Below are positions 4,654 through 55,399 of a DNA stretch of 64,000 nucleotides, in pieces. The translations under genes and the position numbers were made by a program. The stretch comes from Escherichia coli. GTDB lineage: Bacteria > Pseudomonadota > Gammaproteobacteria > Enterobacterales > Enterobacteriaceae. Each line of letters opens with the position of its first letter. The first letter of the stretch is position 1. The stretch lies in assembly GCF_003018235.1 (NCBI RefSeq), contig NZ_CP027437.1, one strand, 5' to 3'. The notes under the pieces were generated by a model that was not told the DNA's origin, did no database searches, and saw nothing but the letters and a program-made list of their open reading frames with translations.

Positions 4654-5667
4654 TTGGATTTTAAACATCTTACTCAATTTAAAGATATAATTGAACTGGA
4701 CAAGCGCCCTGTTAAACTTGATGAACGGGAAACGTTTAATGTCTCATGGGGTATTGATGAGAACTACCAGGTAGGGGCTGCGATTTCAATTGCTTCAATT
4801 CTTGAAAATAATAAACAAAACAAATTTACCTTTCACATAATCGCTGATTACTTAGACAAAGAGTATATTGAATTATTATCACAATTAGCAACGAAGTATC
4901 AAACAGTAATTAAATTATATCATATTGATTCTGAGCCATTGAAGGCGCTACCTCAATCAAATATCTGGCCAGTATCTATTTATTATCGTTTGCTTTCATT
5001 TGATTATTTTTCTGCGCGATTGGATTCATTATTATATCTTGATGCTGATATCGTCTGTAAGGGTTCATTGAACGAGTTAATAGCATTAGAGTTTAAAGAT
5101 GAATATGGGGCTGTGGTAATTGATGTAGATGCTATGCAAAGTAAAAGCGCTGAGCGTTTATGTAATGAGGATTTTAACGGTAGCTATTTTAACTCTGGTG
5201 TAATGTATATTAATTTACGGGAATGGTTACAACAAAGACTAACGGAGAAATTCTTTGATCTATTATCAGATGAGTCAATTATCAAAAAATTAAAGTATCC
5301 GGATCAAGATATTTTAAACTTAATGTTTTTACATCATGCTAAAATATTACCGAGAAAATATAATTGTATTTATACTATAAAGTCAGAATTTGAAGAAAAA
5401 AATAGTGAATATTACACCCAGTTTATTAATGATGAAACTGTCTTCATACATTATACTGGTGTAACTAAGCCATGGCATGATTGGGCGGACTACGCATCTG
5501 CAGATTATTTCCGTAATATTTATAATATATCTCCATGGAGAAATATACCTTATAAAAAAGCTGTTAAAAAACATGAGTACAAAGAAAAATATAAACACTT
5601 GCTTTACCAGAAAAAATTTCTCGATGGTGTTTTTACAGCAATTAAATATAATGTTATGAAAGGTTAA
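4654..5667 (+). CDS. LPS outer-core glycosyltransferase, GT8 family (WaaJ/WaaT-like)
   Basis: 337 aa, paralogous to the 2889-3896 product (same YLDADI / DQD / KPWH motifs). No in-frame ATG after the upstream stop; TTG at 4654 preceded by AAGGG Shine-Dalgarno. Confidence 0.7.
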   Translation: MDFKHLTQFKDIIELDKRPVKLDERETFNVSWGIDENYQVGAAISIASILENNKQNKFTFHIIADYLDKEYIELLSQLATKYQTVIKLYHIDSEPLKALPQSNIWPVSIYYRLLSFDYFSARLDSLLYLDADIVCKGSLNELIALEFKDEYGAVVIDVDAMQSKSAERLCNEDFNGSYFNSGVMYINLREWLQQRLTEKFFDLLSDESIIKKLKYPDQDILNLMFLHHAKILPRKYNCIYTIKSEFEEKNSEYYTQFINDETVFIHYTGVTKPWHDWADYASADYFRNIYNISPWRNIPYKKAVKKHEYKEKYKHLLYQKKFLDGVFTAIKYNVMKG

Positions 5668-5675
5668 TACTCGAG

Positions 5676-6818
5676 ATGGTTGATAAAATAATATTTACAG
5701 TCACTCCTATTTTTTCAATTCCTCCTCGCGGAGCGGCCGCTGTTGAAACGTGGATGTATCAGGTTGCTCAGCGTACCAATTTCCCAAATCGTATTGTTTG
5801 TATCAAGAATCCAGGATACTCAAATTACACCTTTGTTAATGATAATTGTAGTATTCATAGGGTTGGATTCAGTCGCATATATAAGCGGTTATTTCAAAAA
5901 TGGACAAGACTTGATCCTCTTCCATATTCACAGAGAATATTGAATATTGCCCATGATTTTCCTATAACGAAAGAAAGTGTTATTGTAGTTCATAATAGCA
6001 TGAAACTATACACTCAAATTCGTAAGCGAGCTCCTCAGGCAAGAGTGGTTATTCATATGCATAATGCATTTGAACCAAAATTGCTTGAGCAAAATGTTAA
6101 AATGATAGTGCCTAGTTTATACTTGAAAAAGTATTACCAATCTTATTTAGCAAATGCAGATATTGAGATTGTACCAAATGGAATTGATTTAGAAACCTAT
6201 CAATCTACTTTTCAGCCGATCACTAGAAGCGAACTTAATATCTCCCCTGAAGAGAAAATTATTTTTTATGCTGGGCGTATCGTCCCTGATAAAGGCATAT
6301 TACTGTTGATGCAATCATTCGAAAAATTGGCCGCTGCTCACAAAAATTTAAAATTAGTTGTGATTGGTGATTATACAGAAATGAGTAAAAGTGACAAAGG
6401 TGCATATCAACGCAATGTCAGGGAAATTGCAAAACGTTTGAAGGATCGTTGCATTATGTTAGGAAGCATACCGCCTGAAAATATGCATTGTTATTACCCA
6501 CTGGCGGATTTAGTCGTCATTCCTTCCCAGTTCCAGGAACCATTTTGCATGGTGGCAATTGAAGCTATGGGGGCTGGTAAGCCTGTTTTAGTGAGTACGC
6601 GTGGGGGGATGACGGAATTTGTCAAAGAAAATACTACGGGATTCCATTTAAAAGAACCTATGACTGCAGACTCCATAAGCAGCGATATTTTAAAAACGTT
6701 AGCGAATCCTGAATTAACAGCAGTTGCAAAGCAAGGTCAGGATTTTGTGTTTGATCACTACAGTTGGGATGGCGTAACTCAAAGATTTGAAGAGGTTATT
6801 CATAATTGGTTTGAATAA
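5676..6818 (+). CDS. LPS core glycosyltransferase (GT-B fold, GT4-like), last gene of the waaQ operon
   Basis: 380 aa; C-terminal region resembles GT4 retaining glycosyltransferases (EPFCMVAIEAMGAGKPVL); lies where strain-specific outer-core transferases sit. Confidence 0.65.
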   Translation: MVDKIIFTVTPIFSIPPRGAAAVETWMYQVAQRTNFPNRIVCIKNPGYSNYTFVNDNCSIHRVGFSRIYKRLFQKWTRLDPLPYSQRILNIAHDFPITKESVIVVHNSMKLYTQIRKRAPQARVVIHMHNAFEPKLLEQNVKMIVPSLYLKKYYQSYLANADIEIVPNGIDLETYQSTFQPITRSELNISPEEKIIFYAGRIVPDKGILLLMQSFEKLAAAHKNLKLVVIGDYTEMSKSDKGAYQRNVREIAKRLKDRCIMLGSIPPENMHCYYPLADLVVIPSQFQEPFCMVAIEAMGAGKPVLVSTRGGMTEFVKENTTGFHLKEPMTADSISSDILKTLANPELTAVAKQGQDFVFDHYSWDGVTQRFEEVIHNWFE

Positions 6819-13683: not shown

Positions 13684-14709
13684 ATGAAAGCGTTATCCAA
13701 ACTGAAAGCGGAAGAGGGCATCTGGATGACCGACGTTCCTGTACCGGAACTCGGGCATAACGATCTGCTGATTAAAATCCGTAAAACAGCCATCTGCGGG
13801 ACTGACGTTCACATCTATAACTGGGATGAGTGGTCGCAAAAAACCATCCCGGTACCGATGGTCGTGGGCCATGAATATGTCGGTGAAGTGGTAGGTATTG
13901 GTCAGGAAGTGAAAGGCTTCAAGATTGGCGATCGCGTTTCTGGCGAAGGCCATATCACCTGCGGTCACTGTCGCAACTGTCGTGGCGGTCGTACCCATCT
14001 GTGCCGCAACACGATCGGCGTCGGCGTTAACCGTCCGGGCTGCTTCGCCGAGTATCTGGTGATTCCGGCGTTCAACGCTTTCAAAATCCCCGACAATATC
14101 TCCGATGATCTGGCTTCCATTTTTGATCCCTTCGGTAACGCCGTGCATACCGCGCTGTCGTTCGATCTGGTGGGTGAAGATGTGCTGGTCTCTGGTGCAG
14201 GCCCGATTGGTATTATGGCGGCGGCGGTGGCGAAACACGTTGGTGCACGTAACGTGGTGATTACTGATGTTAACGAATACCGCCTTGAGTTGGCGCGTAA
14301 AATGGGTATCACCCGTGCGGTTAACGTCGCTAAAGAGAACCTCAATGATGTGATGGCAGAACTGGGCATGACCGAAGGCTTTGATGTCGGTCTGGAAATG
14401 TCCGGTGCGCCACCAGCGTTTCGTACCATGCTCGACACCATGAACCACGGCGGTCGTATTGCGATGCTGGGTATTCCACCGTCTGATATGTCTATCGACT
14501 GGACCAAAGTGATCTTTAAAGGCTTGTTCATTAAAGGTATTTACGGTCGTGAGATGTTTGAAACCTGGTACAAGATGGCGGCGCTGATTCAGTCTGGCCT
14601 CGATCTTTCGCCGATCATTACCCATCGTTTCTCTATCGATGATTTCCAGAAGGGCTTTGACGCCATGCGTTCGGGCCAGTCCGGGAAAGTTATCCTGAGC
14701 TGGGATTAA
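13684..14709 (+). CDS. tdh: L-threonine 3-dehydrogenase
   Basis: 341 aa, Zn-dependent alcohol dehydrogenase motifs ([16 protein letters not shown]); kbl-tdh operon. Confidence 0.9.
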
Positions 14710-14716
14710 CACAAAC

Positions 14717-14741
14717 AAGGGCTGGTATTCCAGCCCTTTTT
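14717..14741 (+). terminator. Rho-independent terminator of the kbl-tdh operon
   Basis: AAGGGCTGG-TATT-CCAGCCCTT hairpin followed by T-run, 8 bp after the tdh stop. Confidence 0.6.
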
Positions 14742-14947
14742 CCTGAGGATAATCTGTTAAATATGTAAAATGCTGTCAGTAAAATAAAGAATGGGTAATT
14801 GCGCTGATCTCTTATATAGCTGTTCTCATTATCTCTCTACCCTGAAGTGACTCTCTCACCTGTAAAAATAATATCTCACAGGCTTAATAGTTTCTTAATA
14901 CAAAGCCTGTAAAACGTCAGGATAACTTCAGAGGTAGTCGGTAATTT

Positions 14948-15982
14948 ATGATGAACAGCACCAATAAACTTAGTGTTATTATTCCGTTATATAATGCGGG
15001 TGATGATTTCCGCACTTGTATGGAATCTTTAATTACGCAAACCTGGACTGCTCTGGAAATCATTATTATTAACGATGGTTCAACGGATAATTCTGTTGAA
15101 ATAGCAAAGCATTACGCAGAAAACTATCCGCACGTTCGTTTGTTGCATCAGGCGAATGCTGGCGCATCGGTAGCGCGTAATCGTGGGATCGAGGTGGCGA
15201 CGGGCAAATATGTCGCTTTTGTCGATGCTGACGATGAGGTCTATCCCACCATGTACGAAACGCTGATGACCATGGCGTTAGAGGACGACCTCGACGTGGC
15301 GCAGTGCAACGCTGACTGGTGTTTTCGTGAAACGGGAGAAACCTGGCAATCCATCCCCAGCGATCGCCTTCGCTCAACCGGCGTATTAACCGGCCCGGAC
15401 TGGCTGCGAATGGGGCTTTCTTCCCGCCGTTGGACTCATGTTGTCTGGATGGGCATTTATCGTCGCGATGTCATTGTTAAAAATAACATTAAATTTATTG
15501 CCGGATTACATCATCAGGATATTGTCTGGACAACAGAATTTATGTTTAACGCGCTACGTGCGCGATATACCGAGCAATCGTTATATAAATATTATCTGCA
15601 TAATACGTCAGTAAGTCGCTTGAATAGACAGGGAAATAAAAACCTTAATTATCAACGCCACTATATTAAGATTACCCGACTGCTAGAGAAATTAAATCGA
15701 AATTATGCCGACAAAATTACGATTTATCCGGAATTTCATCAGCAAATAACTTACGAAGCATTGCGTGTTTGCCATGCGGTGCGCAAAGAGCCGGATATTA
15801 TTACCCGCCAACGGATGATTGCCGAGATATTTACTTCTGGTATGTATAAGCGCCTGATTACCAATGTGCGCAGCGTGAAGGTGGGTTATCAGGCGTTACT
15901 GTGGTCTTTCCGCTTATGGCAATGGCGCGACAAAACGCGGTCGCACCATCGCATTACGCGTAGCGCCTTTAATTTACGCTAG
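14948..15982 (+). CDS. waaH: GT2-family glycosyltransferase (LPS glucuronic acid transferase WaaH/YibD)
   Basis: 344 aa, GT2 signature [13 protein letters not shown]...DADD; position between tdh and yibQ. Confidence 0.8.
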
Positions 15983-16928
15983 CGTTAAGCTTCGCCGCTT
16001 CAGGCTGTTTGCCCCAGCCTTGCCACTGATGCTGGAAGTAAACGATCAGCGTGCTCTGGCTGATGCTTTCGCTTAATACTTCAAAGAAGCGATTAGCATA
16101 AACAGGTTCTATCGGTTTCTTCGGTTTGCACAGCTTCACGCCACGGAACGGATTACGCGGTGTGTCAGGCACAGTGTTTTTCGGCGGTGTAGACGTATCA
16201 ACCTGCGGTTCATTCAGCAAGCTGCTGGCTTTCACCAGCGTAATGTCTGGCGGCAGGTTATAAACCATCTGTTGTAGCACGCGTACCGTTGAAGGGTGAG
16301 GATGCCCAATGGCAATGGTTGAACCGTTGCGACGCGCCAGATCAATTGCGCGATTGAACTGCACACGGATGTCCGCTTCATTTTGCGAATCGTCGAGGAA
16401 CACTTTCCGTTTGATCACCTTCACGCCAGTGCCTTGCGCTGCGCGCATCGCCTGGGTATTACCGATGGTTACGCTGTCGAGGAAGTAAAGATTGTAACGC
16501 TCCAGCGCCTGCATCACTTTCTGCATACCAAACAGGTTAGAGGTCATCTTGCTGCCCATGTGGTTGTTGATCCCCACGGCATAGGGCACGTTATTGACCG
16601 CACTACGAATAATGCGCTCAATTTCGTCGCTGCTCATCTCCGGGCGTAGCGTATTTTTCTCCAGCGGCTGTTTACTCAGTGGTGCCATCGGTAGATGAAT
16701 CAACACTTCGTGACCGCTGTTATGCGCTTTGGTCGCCATCTCTCTGGCGTGTGGTGAATCGGGTAATACAGCGACGGAGATAGCGGAAGGCATCGCCAGC
16801 ACCTGGTTTTCGTTGTGCGGGCGATACCCAAAATCATCAATGACGATGGCAAGTTTGCCAGCAATTACGGGGGAGGAGAGCGCCAACAGAGCGGCAAATG
16901 CAAGAACGTTACGACGAAATGGAAACAA
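15969..16928 (-). CDS. yibQ: Divergent polysaccharide deacetylase family protein
   Basis: 319 aa with N-terminal signal peptide ([24 protein letters not shown]); the 3' end overlaps the waaH 3' end by 14 bp (convergent). Confidence 0.8.
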
Positions 16929-16931
16929 AAC

Positions 16932-18191
16932 TTATCTTCCCAACCACGGCTGTGGATTGACCGCCTGACCCTGGCGGCGAATTTCGAAATAGAGTGAAGG
17001 CCGACCCTGACCGCCACTGCTGCCCACCAGTGCAATCGGCTGGCCCGCGCGAACCTGCGAACCAACGCTCACCAGTGCGCTCTGATTATAGCCGTAAAGA
17101 CTCATGTCGCCTTTACCATGCTCAACCACCACCACCAGACCGTAGCCTTGCAGCCAGTCAGCCAGAATCACCCGACCGTCGGCAATTGCTTTAACTTCAG
17201 TACCTTCAGAGGCACCGATAACCATTCCTTTCCAGCGTAATTCGCCCTGTAGCTGCTCGCCATAGCGATGCAGCGTCGGCCCGCGAACTGGCCAGAATGC
17301 CTGACCACGCGGCGCACCCAGGCCACCAGTTCGGGACATCAGCGATTTTTCGCTTTCGGTCGGTTTGTAGGTGGTGCCTTTGCGCGTCGCTTCTTTCTGG
17401 CGGTCGCGAACCGCCTGGGCCTCACGCGCTTCTCGTTCAGCACGCGCTTTCGCCGCGGCTTCCGCACGGGCAATGCTGTTACGCAGACGGGATTCGTTGG
17501 CGCGCAGCTCGCTCAACTGTTGCTGACCTTGCTGGATGGAAGACTCCAGCCCTGCCAGCGTCTTTTTACGCTCGTTCAGCGCCTGGGTCAGCTTCGCCTG
17601 TTGGGCGCGCTGCTCATACAACAGCGTTTGTTGCTCGCTCTGTTTCTCTTCCAGCTCGGCGCGTTGCATAGCGACTTCTTCACGCGTTTGTTTCAACTGA
17701 GCAATGGTTTCTTGTCGCGCCTGGTTGAGATAGCCGAAATAAGCCTGTAAACGCTGTCCACGCTGGCTTTCTTCACCGCTGAGAATCAGCTGAATACCGG
17801 TATGCTCGCCCTGACGGAATGCGGCATCCAGTTGTGCGGCGAGGCTGCGCTCCTGGGCGGCTTTTTGCTGCTCCAGTTTGGCAATCGACGCGTTCATCTC
17901 ATCAATCTGTTTATTCAGTTGATTGAGCGTGTTTTGCGTTTCGCGCAGTTTGCGAGTGGCTTCCGAGATCGCTTCTTCCTGCTTTTTCAATTGTGCGAGC
18001 AGGCTTGCGCGTTGTTGTTGCTTTTGGCGTACCGCGCGCTCTTTCGCGGCGATATCGGCCTGAATAGATTTGAGTTGGTCACGCTCATCCGCGTGGGCGG
18101 AAAAGGCGCACAACAATACGCCAGCGCTAAGAACGCTGGCGTAGATGATGGGCCTGATTGCAAACCTGCGCGGTTTCACGGCCCGTGTCAT
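16932..18191 (-). CDS. envC: Murein hydrolase activator EnvC (coiled-coil plus LytM/M23 domain)
   Basis: ORF track gives 427 aa; internal start MTRAVKPRRFAIRPIIYASVLSAG followed by a long Q/E-rich coiled coil and a C-terminal M23 domain. Confidence 0.85.
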   Translation of the reverse strand: MTRAVKPRRFAIRPIIYASVLSAGVLLCAFSAHADERDQLKSIQADIAAKERAVRQKQQQRASLLAQLKKQEEAISEATRKLRETQNTLNQLNKQIDEMNASIAKLEQQKAAQERSLAAQLDAAFRQGEHTGIQLILSGEESQRGQRLQAYFGYLNQARQETIAQLKQTREEVAMQRAELEEKQSEQQTLLYEQRAQQAKLTQALNERKKTLAGLESSIQQGQQQLSELRANESRLRNSIARAEAAAKARAEREAREAQAVRDRQKEATRKGTTYKPTESEKSLMSRTGGLGAPRGQAFWPVRGPTLHRYGEQLQGELRWKGMVIGASEGTEVKAIADGRVILADWLQGYGLVVVVEHGKGDMSLYGYNQSALVSVGSQVRAGQPIALVGSSGGQGRPSLYFEIRRQGQAVNPQPWLGR

Positions 18192-18224
18192 GGTATTAAT
18201 CGCCTTTCCCCTCATGGGGAGGGA

Positions 18225-19769
18225 TTATTCCACGATGAACAGCGGCTTACCAGTCATCTCTTGCGGGATTTCCATACCCATCAGCGACAACATGGTCGGC
18301 GCGATGTCAGAAAGTTTGCCGCCTTCAACCGCTTTCACGTTCTTATCACCAACGTAAATCAGCGGAACTGGCAGGTTGGTGTGTGCCGTGTGTGCCTGAC
18401 CCGTTGCCGGATCGCGCATCTGTTCAGCGTTACCGTGGTCAGCGGTGATCAGCAGTTGTCCACCCACGGACTCAACCGCTTTCGCGACTTCTTCCACGCA
18501 GTGATCCAGCGCTTCAACCGCTTTAACCGCCGCTTCCATCACCCCGGTGTGACCTACCATGTCGCCGTTCGGATAGTTACAGATAATGGTGTCGTATTTG
18601 CCGCTCTTGATTGCCGCAACCAGTTTTTCGGTCAGCTCTGCAGAGCTCATTTCCGGTTGCAGATCGTAGGTAGCCACTTTCGGTGAGTTGATCAGAATGC
18701 GATCTTCGCCTTTGAACGACTCTTCTACGCCACCGTTGAAGAAGAAAGTAACGTGGGCATATTTTTCGGTTTCGGAAATACGCAACTGAGTTTTGTCGTT
18801 TTTCGCCATCCACTCGCCGAAGGTGTTAACCAGGGACGCTGGTGGGTAAGCAACCGCAGTTTTGATGTCAGCGGCGTATTCGGTCAGCATCACGAAATCG
18901 ACGTTAACCACTTTCTTGCGCGCGAAGCCATCGAAATCAGCGTTCACGAATGCACGAGTGATTTCACGCGCGCGGTCAGCACGGAAGTTCATGAAAATCA
19001 GCGTATCGCCGTCTTCCATTGCCGCGTCTGGCTGACCTTCTGCACGAATAACGGTCGCTTTCACGAATTCGTCGTTTTCGTCGCGAGCATAAGCAGCCTG
19101 CAAACCAGCAACGGCGGTATCGGCCTGGAACTCACCCTGCGCCAGAGTCAGCAGGTCATAAGCTTTTTCAACGCGATCCCAGCGGTTATCGCGGTCCATG
19201 GCGTAGTAACGACCAATGATGGACGCTACGCGGCCTTTACCCAGCGCGGCAAATTTCTCTTCGAATTTTTTCAGCGAGGATTCAGCACTGCGCGGCGGAG
19301 TGTCGCGACCGTCAAGGAATGCGTGCAGGTAGATTTTTTCTGCGCCGCGTTCAGCGGCCAGTTCTACCATCGCCATGATGTGATCTTCGTGGCTGTGTAC
19401 GCCGCCTGCGGAGAGCAGACCCATAATGTGAACTGCTTTGCCTGCGTTTTTCGCTTTATCTACCGCGCCAGTCAGTACCGGGTTAGCGAAGAAAGCGCGA
19501 TCTTTGATTTCAACGTCCAGACGAGTCAGGTCCTGATACACGATGCGGCCGGCACCCAGGTTAACGTGACCTACTTCGGAGTTACCCATCTGACGGTCAG
19601 GCAGACCGACTTCCAGACCGGAAGCGTCGATCAGGGTATGCGGACGATTGGCCCACAGTGCATCCATTACCGGGGTTTTAGCACTAAAAATGGCGTTATC
19701 CTGCTGTTCTTCACGATAGCCATAGCCATCCAGAATCACCAGTACCATAGGTTTTTTAGAAACCGACAT
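18225..19769 (-). CDS. gpmM: 2,3-bisphosphoglycerate-independent phosphoglycerate mutase
   Basis: ORF track 562 aa; start at internal ATG 19769 ([19 protein letters not shown]) gives 514 aa typical of iPGM. Confidence 0.9.
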
Positions 19770-23288: not shown

Positions 23289-23302
23289 CGTCCTGTGATT
23301 GT

Positions 23303-23335
23303 GCCGGATGCGATGTAATCATCTATCCGGCATAC
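23303..23335. repeat. REP-like palindromic element between convergent cysE and trmL
   Basis: GCCGGATGCGATGTAATCATCTATCCGGCATAC: GCCGGAT/ATCCGGC arms resembling the E. coli REP consensus. Confidence 0.5.
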
Positions 23336-36842: not shown

Positions 36843-36881
36843 AGTATTAACCTTCATCAATGTTTTTACCCGAGAGGGCTG

Positions 36882-36926
36882 GGGTGAGGCTTTTCCCTCA
36901 CCCAAACCCTCTCCGTGAGGAGAGGG
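36882..36926. repeat. Two adjacent GC-rich perfect hairpins in the mtlA-mtlD intergenic region
   Basis: GGGTGAGG-cttttc-CCTCACCC (36882-36903) and CCCTCTCC-gtga-GGAGAGGG (36907-36926). Confidence 0.5.
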
Positions 36927-41664: not shown

Positions 41665-43056
41665 ATGACAACCGAAACGCGTTCCCTCTATAGTCAACTT
41701 CCGGCTATTGATCGCTTATTGCGCGATAGCTCCTTCCTTTCTTTGCGTGATACTTATGGTCACACCCGCGTGGTGGAATTGCTGCGTCAGATGCTTGACG
41801 AAGCGCGAGAAGTGATTCGTGACAGCCAGACGCTGCCCGCATGGTGTGAAAACTGGGCGCAAGAAGTCGATGCCCGACTGACAAAGGAGGCGCAGAGCGC
41901 GCTGCGTCCGGTGATCAACCTGACGGGAACCGTGCTGCATACCAATCTTGGGCGAGCTTTACAGGCGGAAGCCGCAGTGGAAGCCGTTGCGCAGGCTATG
42001 CGTACGCCAGTGACCCTCGAGTACGATCTGGACGACGCCGGACGCGGACATCGCGATCGGGCGCTGGCGCAGCTGCTGTGCCGCATTACGGGAGCGGAAG
42101 ATGCCTGTATCGTTAATAACAATGCGGCGGCGGTGTTATTGATGTTGGCGGCCACTGCCAGCGGGAAAGAGGTGGTGGTATCTCGCGGCGAACTGGTGGA
42201 GATTGGCGGCGCGTTTCGTATTCCTGATGTCATGCGTCAGGCAGGCTGCACCCTACACGAAGTGGGGACCACCAACCGCACGCACGCTAATGATTATCGT
42301 CAGGCGGTGAATGAAAATACCGCGCTGTTGATGAAAGTACATACCAGTAACTACAGCATTCAGGGATTCACCAAAGCGATAGATGAAGCGGAACTGGTGG
42401 CGCTCGGCAAAGAGCTGGATGTTCCCGTAGTGACTGATTTAGGCAGTGGCTCGCTGGTTGATCTTAGCCAGTACGGTTTGCCGAAAGAGCCAATGCCGCA
42501 GGAGTTGATTGCGGCGGGTGTCAGTCTGGTGAGCTTCTCCGGCGACAAGTTGTTAGGCGGGCCGCAGGCAGGAATTATTGTTGGTAAAAAAGAGATGATC
42601 GCCCGCCTGCAAAGCCACCCGCTGAAGCGTGCATTACGCGCGGATAAAATGACCCTCGCGGCGCTGGAAGCCACGTTGCGTCTTTATTTACACCCTGAAG
42701 CACTGAGTGAAAAATTACCGACCCTGCGCCTGCTTACCCGCAGCGCAGAGGTCATTCAAATCCAGGCACAACGTTTACAGGCCCCCCTTGCCGCACATTA
42801 CGGCGCGGAGTTTGCGGTACAGGTTATGCCATGTCTTTCGCAGATTGGCAGTGGTTCGCTGCCGGTTGATCGCCTGCCGAGCGCGGCATTAACGTTTACA
42901 CCCCATGATGGACGCGGTAGCCACCTTGAGTCATTAGCCGCCCGCTGGCGTGAATTGCCAGTGCCGGTGATTGGTCGTATTTATGACGGACGATTGTGGC
43001 TGGATTTACGCTGCCTTGAAAATGAGCAACGGTTTTTGGAGATGTTGTTGAAATGA
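41665..43056 (+). CDS. selA: L-seryl-tRNA(Sec) selenium transferase
   Basis: 463 aa; start overlaps selB by 4 bp. Confidence 0.9.
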
Positions 43057-47977: not shown

Positions 47978-47981
47978 TGTG

Positions 47982-48020
47982 AAAGGCAGGCAACGTTAAT
48001 AGTTGTCTGCCTTTGTTTTA
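47982..48020. terminator. Putative bidirectional terminator between convergent aldB and the 359-aa nuclease-like gene
   Basis: AAAGGCAGGCAAC-gttaata-GTTGTCTGCCTTT (13-bp stem, 1 mismatch) followed by a T-rich run. Confidence 0.5.
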
Positions 48021-53856: not shown

Positions 53857-54672
53857 ATGCTCGAATTATCCATGACGTTACCGATTAAAGTGCAAAATGG
53901 TGGATTATTTATTTCCCGTGGCGTAGGGAGGCATCCGGCAAGGCGGCTGGAGTCATGGGAAATTATCTTTGTCGAAAAAGGTCGATTAGCGATTCAGGAA
54001 GAAGAGCGGATATTTCTGGTCGATGCGGGAGAGAGTTTATTACTCTGGCCGAACCGACAGCATGTTGGGGTAGAGGATTTTCCCGCCGATCTCAAATTTT
54101 ACTGGCTGCATTTTGAGGTTAAAGCGCCGGATAGCGACCCGCGCTGGCTCACTCATCTTAGCGTGCCGCAACAAACGAAGGTTGCCGATCCGCAGGCGCT
54201 GGTGGCCCTGTTTCGCCAGTTCTTAAGCGAACAGGAAAAGCATCAACGCACTCCGGCGCTGGAGTTTATTGTGCTGCTGATTTTGCAGCAGCTCACCCGT
54301 GACGCGCGTCTTGATGAACAGGCCGATGCCGCAGGTACCACGCTTGCCTGGAAAGCGCAGAAACTGATCCGCACGCAATATCATCGCCCGCTTTCTACGG
54401 CGCTTTTAGCCCGCGAGCTGTACTGCAATGCCGATTATCTTGGGCGTGTCTATCGGCGGGTGTTTCATCTGACGTTAACAGAAGCAATTCATCGCCAGCG
54501 AGTGCGCGAAGCCGAAAAGCTGTTAATTAGCGAAGCGCGATCGCTCACTGAAGTGGCGGCGTTGTGCGGGTTTAATGACGTTGGCTATTTCCGGCAGATT
54601 TTTCGCAAACACACCGGTTTAACGCCAGCTGCGTGGAAGCGACGTTACAGCAAGGAACATATCAATTCGTAG
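53857..54672 (+). CDS. AraC/XylS-family transcriptional regulator
   Basis: 271 aa, N-terminal cupin-like domain and C-terminal double HTH (...EVAALCGFNDVGYFRQIFRKHTGLTPAAWKR); divergent from the transporter-GH127 pair. Confidence 0.8.
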   Translation: MLELSMTLPIKVQNGGLFISRGVGRHPARRLESWEIIFVEKGRLAIQEEERIFLVDAGESLLLWPNRQHVGVEDFPADLKFYWLHFEVKAPDSDPRWLTHLSVPQQTKVADPQALVALFRQFLSEQEKHQRTPALEFIVLLILQQLTRDARLDEQADAAGTTLAWKAQKLIRTQYHRPLSTALLARELYCNADYLGRVYRRVFHLTLTEAIHRQRVREAEKLLISEARSLTEVAALCGFNDVGYFRQIFRKHTGLTPAAWKRRYSKEHINS

Positions 54673-54703
54673 TGCCGGGGCAATGAAGCCCCGGCGTGAG
54701 GGA

Positions 54704-55399
54704 TTACTGCCCGTAATAGGCATTGGCCCCATGCTTACGCAGGTAGTGCTTATCCAACAGTTCGTTTTGCATCGCAGGAAGCTGCGGCGCAAGCTGACGC
54801 GAGAACAGGCCCATATAGGCACACTCTTCCAGCACCACGGCGTTATGCACTGCATCGGCGGCATTTTTTCCCCAGGCGAACGGGCCGTGAGAATGTACCA
54901 GAACCGCCGGGATTTGCGCTGGACTCCTGCCGCGTTCTTCGAGGGTTTCAATGATCACTTCGCCAGTCTGGTATTCATACTCGCCGTTGATCTCTTCTGC
55001 GGTCATCAGGCGCGTGCAGGGGATGGCTCCATAGAAGTAATCGGCGTGCGTGGTGCCCCAGGCGGGGAGATCCAGCCCGGCCTGTGACCAGATGGTCGCG
55101 TGGCGCGAGTGGGTATGCACAATGCCACCGATTTCGGCATAGCGACGGTAGAGCGCCAGATGCGTTGGCGTGTCGGACGAGGGCTTTTTGCTGCCTTCCA
55201 CCCCCTTACCGCTGGCTATCTCAACCACCACCATATCGTCGGCGGTCATCACGTCGTACTCGACGCCGGAAGGTTTGATTACCATCCATTGCCGCGTTTC
55301 GTCTACCGCGCTGACATTGCCCCAGGTGAACGTCACCAGATGGTGAGCGGGAAGTGCCAGATTTGCCGCCAGCACGTCGGCTTTCAGTTGCTCTAACAT
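54704..55399 (-). CDS. sgbE: L-ribulose-5-phosphate 4-epimerase
   Basis: 231 aa class II aldolase/epimerase fold; last gene of the yiaK-sgbE operon. Confidence 0.85.

Follow-up and report, generated by a model that had tools for sequence, protein, structure and literature searches.

The window analysed here, a stretch of 64,000 nucleotides, is a segment of the Escherichia coli chromosome. It carries the waa core cluster and kbl-tdh, followed by waaH, which lies opposite yibQ, envC and gpmM. The waaH gene (yibD) occupies 14948..15982 on the + strand and encodes 344 residues ending in ...SAFNLR, with the stop codon TAG at 15980-15982. On the - strand, yibQ (sddA) occupies 15969..16928 and encodes 319 residues ending in ...KLNASVN; its stop codon is TAA, the reverse complement of TTA at 15969-15971. 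The list of open reading frames, the raw sequence and the RefSeq annotation agree on the ends of both genes. The 14 bp at 15969..15982 belong to both coding sequences. Read on the + strand they give the WaaH ending ...F-N-L-R-stop, and on the - strand the YibQ ending ...(A)S-V-N-stop. In E. coli the yibQ stop codon corresponds to the antisense of the junction between the WaaH Phe and Asn codons (TT|A). An imperfect inverted repeat (ACGCGTAGCG ... CGCTAGCGT) at 15957..15984 brackets both stop codons and folds weakly on either strand.

The 14-bp overlap of the 3' ends of waaH (+) and yibQ (-) at 15969-15982, as given in the original prediction, is exact in the open reading frames, the sequence and RefSeq. 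RefSeq annotates identical ends for both genes in a 99.9%-identical genome. In K-12 MG1655, yibQ lies at 3788101..3789060 and waaH at 3789047..3790081, with the same 14-bp overlap. Since the 3' end of a coding sequence is set by its first in-frame stop, there is no ambiguity of the kind that affects start codons. If the genes lost their own stops, the next in-frame stop would lie one codon on for waaH and four codons on for yibQ, which leaves little scope for the overlap to lengthen.

The waaH-yibQ locus is present in 5424 of 5426 complete E. coli genomes. Two overlap-bearing haplotypes of 38 nt cover 5081 of the 5426 (4702 with the K-12 allele and 379 with the allele of this window). Seven convergent gene pairs are found in the window, and waaH/yibQ is the only overlapping one; the other gaps range from 11 to 71 bp. 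A full-text literature search found no paper naming both yibQ and waaH. Elsewhere in the window, a glycosyltransferase family 8 gene of the waa core cluster at 4922-5950 (+) is annotated in a near-identical RefSeq genome as a pseudogene with an internal stop.

Experimental work has been published on both genes. WaaH is annotated as a UDP-glucuronate:LPS(HepIII) glycosyltransferase of family GT2, and Pfam places the GT2 domain at residues 9-137 (E 9e-39). The gene is expressed and has a phenotype. YibQ, which has been renamed SddA, is the product of a gene of the envC operon. It is a divergent polysaccharide deacetylase that acts on denuded glycan strands in the periplasm, with the Pfam domain Polysacc_deac_2 at residues 28-238 (E 4.9e-76). 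Both catalytic domains are thus far from the overlap. Residues 239-319 of SddA are predicted to be disordered and are not needed for activity; the last four residues are encoded by the overlap. The gene is the final one of gpmM-envC-yibQ. Its upstream partners, envC and gpmM, occupy 16932..19769 on the - strand, and their transcripts pass through yibQ into the overlap.

An apparent overlap could also be an artefact of annotation, if one of the genes is not expressed or has its true end further upstream. In many orthologues YibQ does stop 9-10 residues earlier, and the original prediction had named an ortholog alignment of this kind as the place to look for an earlier end. Such ends are real in the relatives, but neither E. 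coli gene contains an earlier in-frame stop, and the overlap stands. The end of WaaH is invariant in orthologues. Full-length SddA 1-319 carrying a C-terminal tag has been detected, and expression of waaH is accompanied by a phenotype. An earlier end of either gene is ruled out by the in-frame sequence, the invariant WaaH end and the detected SddA 1-319, and an artefact is almost certainly the wrong explanation. The locus shows all three features of a convergent overlap: genuine genes on opposite strands, shared 3' nucleotides and retention in orthologous loci. The overlap of waaH and yibQ is genuine, old, already annotated and ordinary in kind.

How the overlap arose can be addressed by comparing related species. 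The yibQ locus was taken from 80 species-representative (GTDB) genomes of Enterobacteriaceae, and the stops of yibQ and of any waaH homologue were located in each. The distances given here refer to loci with a full-length waaH. A gap of -14 bp is found at 11 loci, from E. coli, E. albertii, Salmonella diarizonae, several Citrobacter, Leclercia, Enterobacter, Silvania and Cedecea. A gap of 0 bp occurs at 10 loci, from the Citrobacter freundii group and some Kluyvera; nine of these have a divergent waaH (63-67% identity), and the tenth has one that is 70% identical. At five loci the gap is -4 bp, where the two genes share palindromic stops. Gaps of +6, +14, +72 and +113 bp are each found once, as is one of -152 bp in Superficieibacter electus.

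The -14 geometry is exactly identical at its 11 loci, which represent at least seven genera (Escherichia, Salmonella, Citrobacter, Leclercia, Enterobacter, Silvania and Cedecea), while the stop codons vary. Because the same geometry recurs across at least seven genera despite differing stop codons, the 14-bp overlap is more than a product of chance. Throughout this group the yibQ stop corresponds to the WaaH Phe/Leu-Asn codon junction read in antisense, where T-Y-A on the waaH strand yields TAA or TGA.

The two proteins behave very differently at the junction. The end of WaaH does not move: all 32 full-length orthologues stop at the same residue, whatever the type of junction, and the closer type ends in ...R-[KS]-A-[FL]-N-L-x-stop. 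It is YibQ that varies, with a tail whose length after a conserved WQGW motif differs by group. At the 46 loci without waaH the tail is mostly 4-5 residues long (GKKA, DNPTN). Beside the divergent "type B" waaH (63-67% identity) it comprises 1-3 residues. In the -14 group it comprises 12-14 residues and extends into waaH. Over the last four residues the mean pairwise identity is 0.67 for WaaH and 0.34 for YibQ, and the polymorphism within E. coli is synonymous in waaH (TTG/TTA) and changes Ala/Val in yibQ. Judged from these sequences, WaaH is the better conserved partner inside the shared 14 bp.

A fixed WaaH end combined with a variable YibQ tail means that the overlap is a displaced yibQ stop codon. 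In the proposed course of events, the YibQ/SddA frame would end in a disordered and catalytically dispensable tail, next to a gene whose own C-terminus is fixed. In Escherichia, Salmonella and the other genera the frame would then continue up to the antisense stop that lies 14 nt inside waaH. The preferred reading is an ordinary convergent overlap made by displacement of the yibQ stop codon, without a demonstrated regulatory role, and we give it a probability of about 75%.

An alternative is that the overlap has been kept because the C-terminal residues of YibQ matter, for instance as a tail recognised by Prc, a tail-specific protease of the periplasm, so that the 14 bp would be under a true dual coding constraint. 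SddA builds up when prc is mutated, and in an AlphaFold3 model its C-terminal KFNASAN sits in the Prc active site; together these would be consistent with a recognition tail. The retention of the -14 geometry in at least seven genera points the same way, as do tails that end in small residues (ASAN, ANAD, VNPG, AKTD). However, the last four residues of YibQ are poorly conserved (see above), in a pattern that follows from the antisense reading of the WaaH tail. In most Enterobacteriaceae the tail is short and quite unlike this one, and the authors of the Prc work state that the site of proteolysis is not known. Given the poor conservation and the different short tails of most relatives, a specific function of the last four residues is possible but unlikely, and the same holds for their having preserved the overlap.

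Displacement of the yibQ stop codon describes the junction of E. coli; several relatives show other outcomes. Two Citrobacter strains, Awk 4 and R56 (loci L008 and L010), have no waaH and yet have a YibQ tail of 14 residues (..INANAN*). The sequence around their yibQ stop (at position 4963 of the locus) still resembles the 3' end of waaH. These loci seem to reflect a secondary loss of waaH that left the extended yibQ frame behind. In Superficieibacter electus (L023, 3709-3860) yibQ lacks its usual stop, reads 152 bp into waaH and ends in a tail of 58 residues. This is either a real long overlap, or a frameshift or assembly error.

More generally, the slot between yibQ and tdh is variable in the family, as in Klebsiella, Raoultella, Enterobacter, Lelliottia and others (for example L028, L031, L049 and L071). 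Some loci have one of two divergent waaH types there; in others the place is taken by glycosyltransferases that are only weakly related (27-34% identity) or by some other sequence of about 1 kb, or it is empty. On this comparison the slot looks like a replacement hot spot between conserved genes.

A second aspect of the junction is how the two transcripts end. The original prediction stated that the overlap leaves no room for a terminator. There is indeed no intergenic DNA, but elements of the kind found at 3' ends lie inside waaH: a hairpin of -22 kcal/mol that begins 16 nt past the yibQ stop, and a tract with more C than G behind it. The expectation that each transcript carries the antisense of the other gene follows from the geometry, and in the yibQ direction it is backed by a published region of Rho termination.

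The hairpin spans 15919..15952 and forms in yibQ-sense RNA (- strand, read from 15952 to 15919). It has a 13-bp stem and an 8-nt loop, folds at -22.2 kcal/mol and lies inside waaH codons. It lacks a U-tract, with one U in the next 9 nt (tail CAUAAGCGG). Among all 36-nt windows on both strands of the 64 kb it ranks third in strength. The 111-nt region around it has a folding z of -3.64 in the yibQ sense; in the waaH sense the value is -1.63, which is unremarkable. The same hairpin folds at -15.4 kcal/mol on the + strand. Directly past it in the yibQ direction, 15809..15928 (- strand) is a C-rich, G-poor tract (C 0.29-0.33, G 0.17-0.25, C/G 1.3-1.6) that is rut-like.

Evidence for Rho comes from Adams et al. 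(2021), who report a Rho region at MG1655 3789384 (+), classed as antisense to waaH, with a score of 5.55 (p 1.8e-15). Reads upstream/downstream of it are 106/28 without bicyclomycin and 187/274 with bicyclomycin. A position in the window equals 3805029 minus the K-12 coordinate, a conversion that reproduces the tdh coordinates exactly. The peak falls at 15645 (- strand), about 324 nt past the yibQ stop, although the published measure uses 800-nt windows and its peak positions are coarse. A bicyclomycin-sensitive region at about this distance means that yibQ transcripts enter antisense waaH and are ended by Rho.

According to these data, transcripts of gpmM-envC-yibQ run on into antisense waaH and are ended by Rho a few hundred nucleotides downstream. 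They could then be trimmed back to the hairpin 16 nt past the stop. We propose that the hairpin may act as a 3' stem-loop protecting yibQ transcripts that Rho has terminated. In three growth conditions, curated Term-seq data have no 3' end between MG1655 3786938 and the tdh terminator at 3790287, an interval that includes the hairpin. Low expression may be the reason.

An intrinsic terminator was considered for the junction and rejected. The strong hairpin has no U-tract, and a consensus scan finds only weak sites, five against 2.6 expected; an example, with six pairs, is 16045-16064. A scan of 14500-17500 against Rfam, at E up to 1, gives one chance match far below threshold. Terminators of the classical type are found in relatives. 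A canonical hairpin with a T-tract lies past the yibQ stop at 21 of the 46 loci without waaH, and such sites are essentially missing where waaH abuts yibQ.

The hairpin is not claimed as a conserved RNA element. In a covariation test over 15 loci, 79% of cells are paired, which is no better than in shuffles, and the full 13-bp stem is confined to Escherichia. Within E. coli its sequence is identical in 5054 of 5426 genomes. Its conservation is slightly above that of the flank at the overlap (4702 genomes with the K-12 allele and 379 with the allele of this window) and clearly above that of the flank inside waaH (2883 and 562). The contrast with the flanks is real only on the side inside waaH and weak towards the overlap. 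The low own-allele counts of 379 and 562 mostly reflect one common SNP per flank, and the K-12 alleles number 4702 and 2883.

Natural deletions affect this region in a few genomes. Coverage of a 751-nt junction query is below 80% in 15 of 5424 E. coli genomes. In E. coli ETEC1748 (L083, NZ_CP122719.1; 3191-4019) waaH is a pseudogene whose 3' part is deleted. The breakpoint, equivalent to about 15951 in the window, is at the 5' edge of the hairpin, some 18 nt after the end of yibQ, such that yibQ is intact and the hairpin is gone. In Escherichia sp. MOD1-EC7003 (L005, 899-1457) yibQ and tdh are only about 560 bp apart. Here waaH is mostly deleted internally, and its last ~100 bp are kept, hairpin and overlap included.

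Strong hairpins (-20 kcal/mol or lower) occur at other convergent pairs of the window as well, at 47980-48015, 54660-54709 and 23300-23335. Two of them lie inside coding sequences, in the final ~25 nt of aldB and of a gene of the AraC family, and the third occupies the spacer between cysE and trmL. Convergent junctions may often have hairpins that extend into the coding 3' ends. Very strong hairpins on both strands (-23 to -26 kcal/mol) are found at 42718-42755 and 36875-36910, one inside selA and the other at the mtlA-mtlD junction.

Another model for the ends of these transcripts is termination by collision. Bidirectional terminators of this type are said to have been seen between convergent genes by SEnd-seq, reportedly by Ju and colleagues in 2019. 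In this model, the hairpin would pause the polymerases of both genes, and head-on and trailing collisions would give sharp 3' ends without Rho. Collision-driven bidirectional terminators are described as a class that is Rho-independent and unlike intrinsic terminators (Wang et al. 2022, bioRxiv 10.1101/2022.10.23.513370). The pair studied here is convergent, its hairpin forms on both strands at the energies given above, and the hairpin is unlike an intrinsic terminator, as in that class.

However, the hairpin at 15919-15952 lies upstream of the waaH stop at 15980-15982 and would leave waaH mRNAs without a stop codon. A hairpin placed before the waaH stop is unable to serve waaH. Read-through on the yibQ strand is sensitive to bicyclomycin, against the Rho independence of the class. 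No sharp 3' ends are curated here, and there is little transcription from the waaH side in rich medium. The locus thus departs from the class in two defining points, the independence from Rho and a hairpin that lies beyond both stop codons, and termination by collision is very unlikely.

On the waaH side, the 3' end is less clearly marked. A weak hairpin in waaH-sense RNA at 16031..16072 (+ strand; -13.3 kcal/mol, tail TTAATACTT) lies 49 nt past the waaH stop, inside yibQ, and is only a candidate for the 3'-end structure of waaH transcripts. No C-rich tract is found for about 350 nt past the waaH stop, the first being at about 16343-16462.

A second Rho region of Adams et al. (2021), at MG1655 3790042 (-) with a score of 5.77, has its peak at 14987 (+ strand), 39 nt into waaH. 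Since this region was recorded in LB so close to the start of the gene, little transcription from the waaH side should arrive at the overlap in rich medium. In uninduced cells, Rho may therefore silence whatever transcription comes into waaH, whether initiated at the waaH promoter or reading through from tdh. The published data show that in rich medium Rho curtails transcription of the waaH strand close to the 5' end of the gene. In phosphate-starved cells, waaH transcripts would enter antisense yibQ without meeting an intrinsic terminator, and would probably be ended by Rho too.

The role of PhoB at the waaH promoter is disputed. Fitzgerald 2023 reports no ChIP-seq signal and regards the control as indirect; gel shifts and Pho boxes have been described by others. 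At up to three mismatches, a strict Pho-box consensus has no match in 14710-14947. The sequence ctgtaaaaataatatctcac at about 14861-14880 is Pho-box-like by eye.

The strong induction of waaH allows the consequences of convergent transcription to be assessed. In O157:H7, waaH rises 80-fold in low phosphate and is 15-fold PhoB-dependent. In MG1655 its counts are 13872/11547 in the wild type and 3032/2925 in delta-phoB, a 4-fold difference. If convergent transcription or pairing of the mRNA 3' ends were regulatory, phosphate-induced waaH should lower yibQ/sddA and perhaps envC. Such antisense coupling would tie the Pho response to septal cell-wall processing. The geometry does force complementary 3' ends, and waaH has neither an intrinsic terminator after its stop nor a nearby C-rich tract. 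Its induction can reach about 80-fold, and envC (yibP) falls 2.16-fold in low versus high phosphate in O157:H7 and has a log2 of -0.4 in MG1655 wild type versus delta-phoB.

The fall of envC in O157:H7 is, however, not PhoB-dependent, against the 15-fold dependence of waaH, and hundreds of growth-related genes fall likewise. In MG1655 the value of -0.4 has q = 0.19. The yibQ gene is not among the rows listed, down to q = 0.57, of the significance-sorted wild type/delta-phoB table, from which we infer no significant change in yibQ; nor is it listed in the O157:H7 phosphate/PhoB data. Species without waaH show no difference that hints at a lost regulator.

The antisense interference raised in the original prediction thus finds no backing in the part of the published record that lists these genes. 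The evidence consists of steady-state RNA levels from two published data sets, and in what they list no PhoB-dependent change of envC or yibQ is seen while waaH shifts 4- to 15-fold. At the level of RNA, and as far as these sources list the genes, one partner does not fall as the other is induced, as it would in a cis-antisense pair. Because these are steady-state levels, the listed values weigh against strong interference and are still compatible with a small effect. The available expression data give, for the genes they list, no sign of a measurable cost of waaH to the mRNA of yibQ or envC, and regulatory antisense coupling is distinctly improbable.

A weaker form of the idea combines the two ends of the junction. 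During phosphate starvation, waaH transcripts might run hundreds of nucleotides into antisense yibQ/sddA and have a modest effect on how much envC-sddA message there is, or on its 3' end. The Prc-sensitive end of SddA might in addition be tied to an LPS-modifying gene through its last four residues, which WaaH dictates. We regard this as a long shot; if true, it would form a small physical link from the Pho response to daughter-cell separation.

Under the preferred reading, displacement of the yibQ stop codon, the overlap means little beyond correct bookkeeping, since the reference annotation already has it and its class is well described. The pair is nevertheless a clean worked example of how an overlap originates, from a fixed end on one side and a disordered tail that reads to the first antisense stop on the other. 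It also appears to be a case in which the classic terminator of relatives is replaced in E. coli by Rho-dependent termination inside the neighbouring gene. The arrangement is relevant for work on the strong phosphate-responsive promoter region of yibD/waaH, when that region is engineered, and for strains in which waaH or yibQ/sddA is to be deleted. A clean deletion of either gene takes the last codons of the other. It may also remove the hairpin, by which the yibQ message is probably stabilised.

Three known kinds of terminator can be compared with the locus. The collision-driven terminators (Ju et al. 2019; Wang et al. 2022) are alike in the convergent pair and the non-intrinsic hairpin, and differ from the locus, where the yibQ strand is Rho-dependent. 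Intrinsic bidirectional terminators follow yibQ in waaH-less Enterobacteriaceae (L027, L034, L040 and L079). They have the same position and the same task, ending gpmM-envC-yibQ, but lie in true intergenic DNA as canonical hairpins with A- and T-tracts on their flanks, whereas E. coli is without any.

The third kind was described by Dar & Sorek 2018 (PMC6061677) as Rho-dependent transcripts with stable stem-loops that lack a U-tract, an enrichment of C over G downstream, and in some cases ends within the coding sequence of the next gene. The yibQ side shares the U-tract-less stem-loop past the gene, the excess of C over G downstream, the bicyclomycin-sensitive read-through and the location inside the next coding sequence. 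It differs in that no steady-state 3' end has been reported at the hairpin and in that the hairpin is without covariation support. Termination on the yibQ side mostly fits this Rho-dependent, stem-loop-protected type.

The overlap itself is best compared with the convergent overlapping pairs of Huvet & Stumpf 2014 (PMC4161906), who counted 75 of them in an E. coli reference genome and attributed them to movement of stop codons. The waaH/yibQ pair has the same short shared 3' ends, real genes, movement of a stop (that of yibQ) and conservation in relatives. Other forms of its junction (0, -4, +6 and +14 bp) exist in other genera. Nothing essential sets the pair apart from this class; what is particular to it is the combination of a fixed WaaH end with a variable, disordered YibQ tail.
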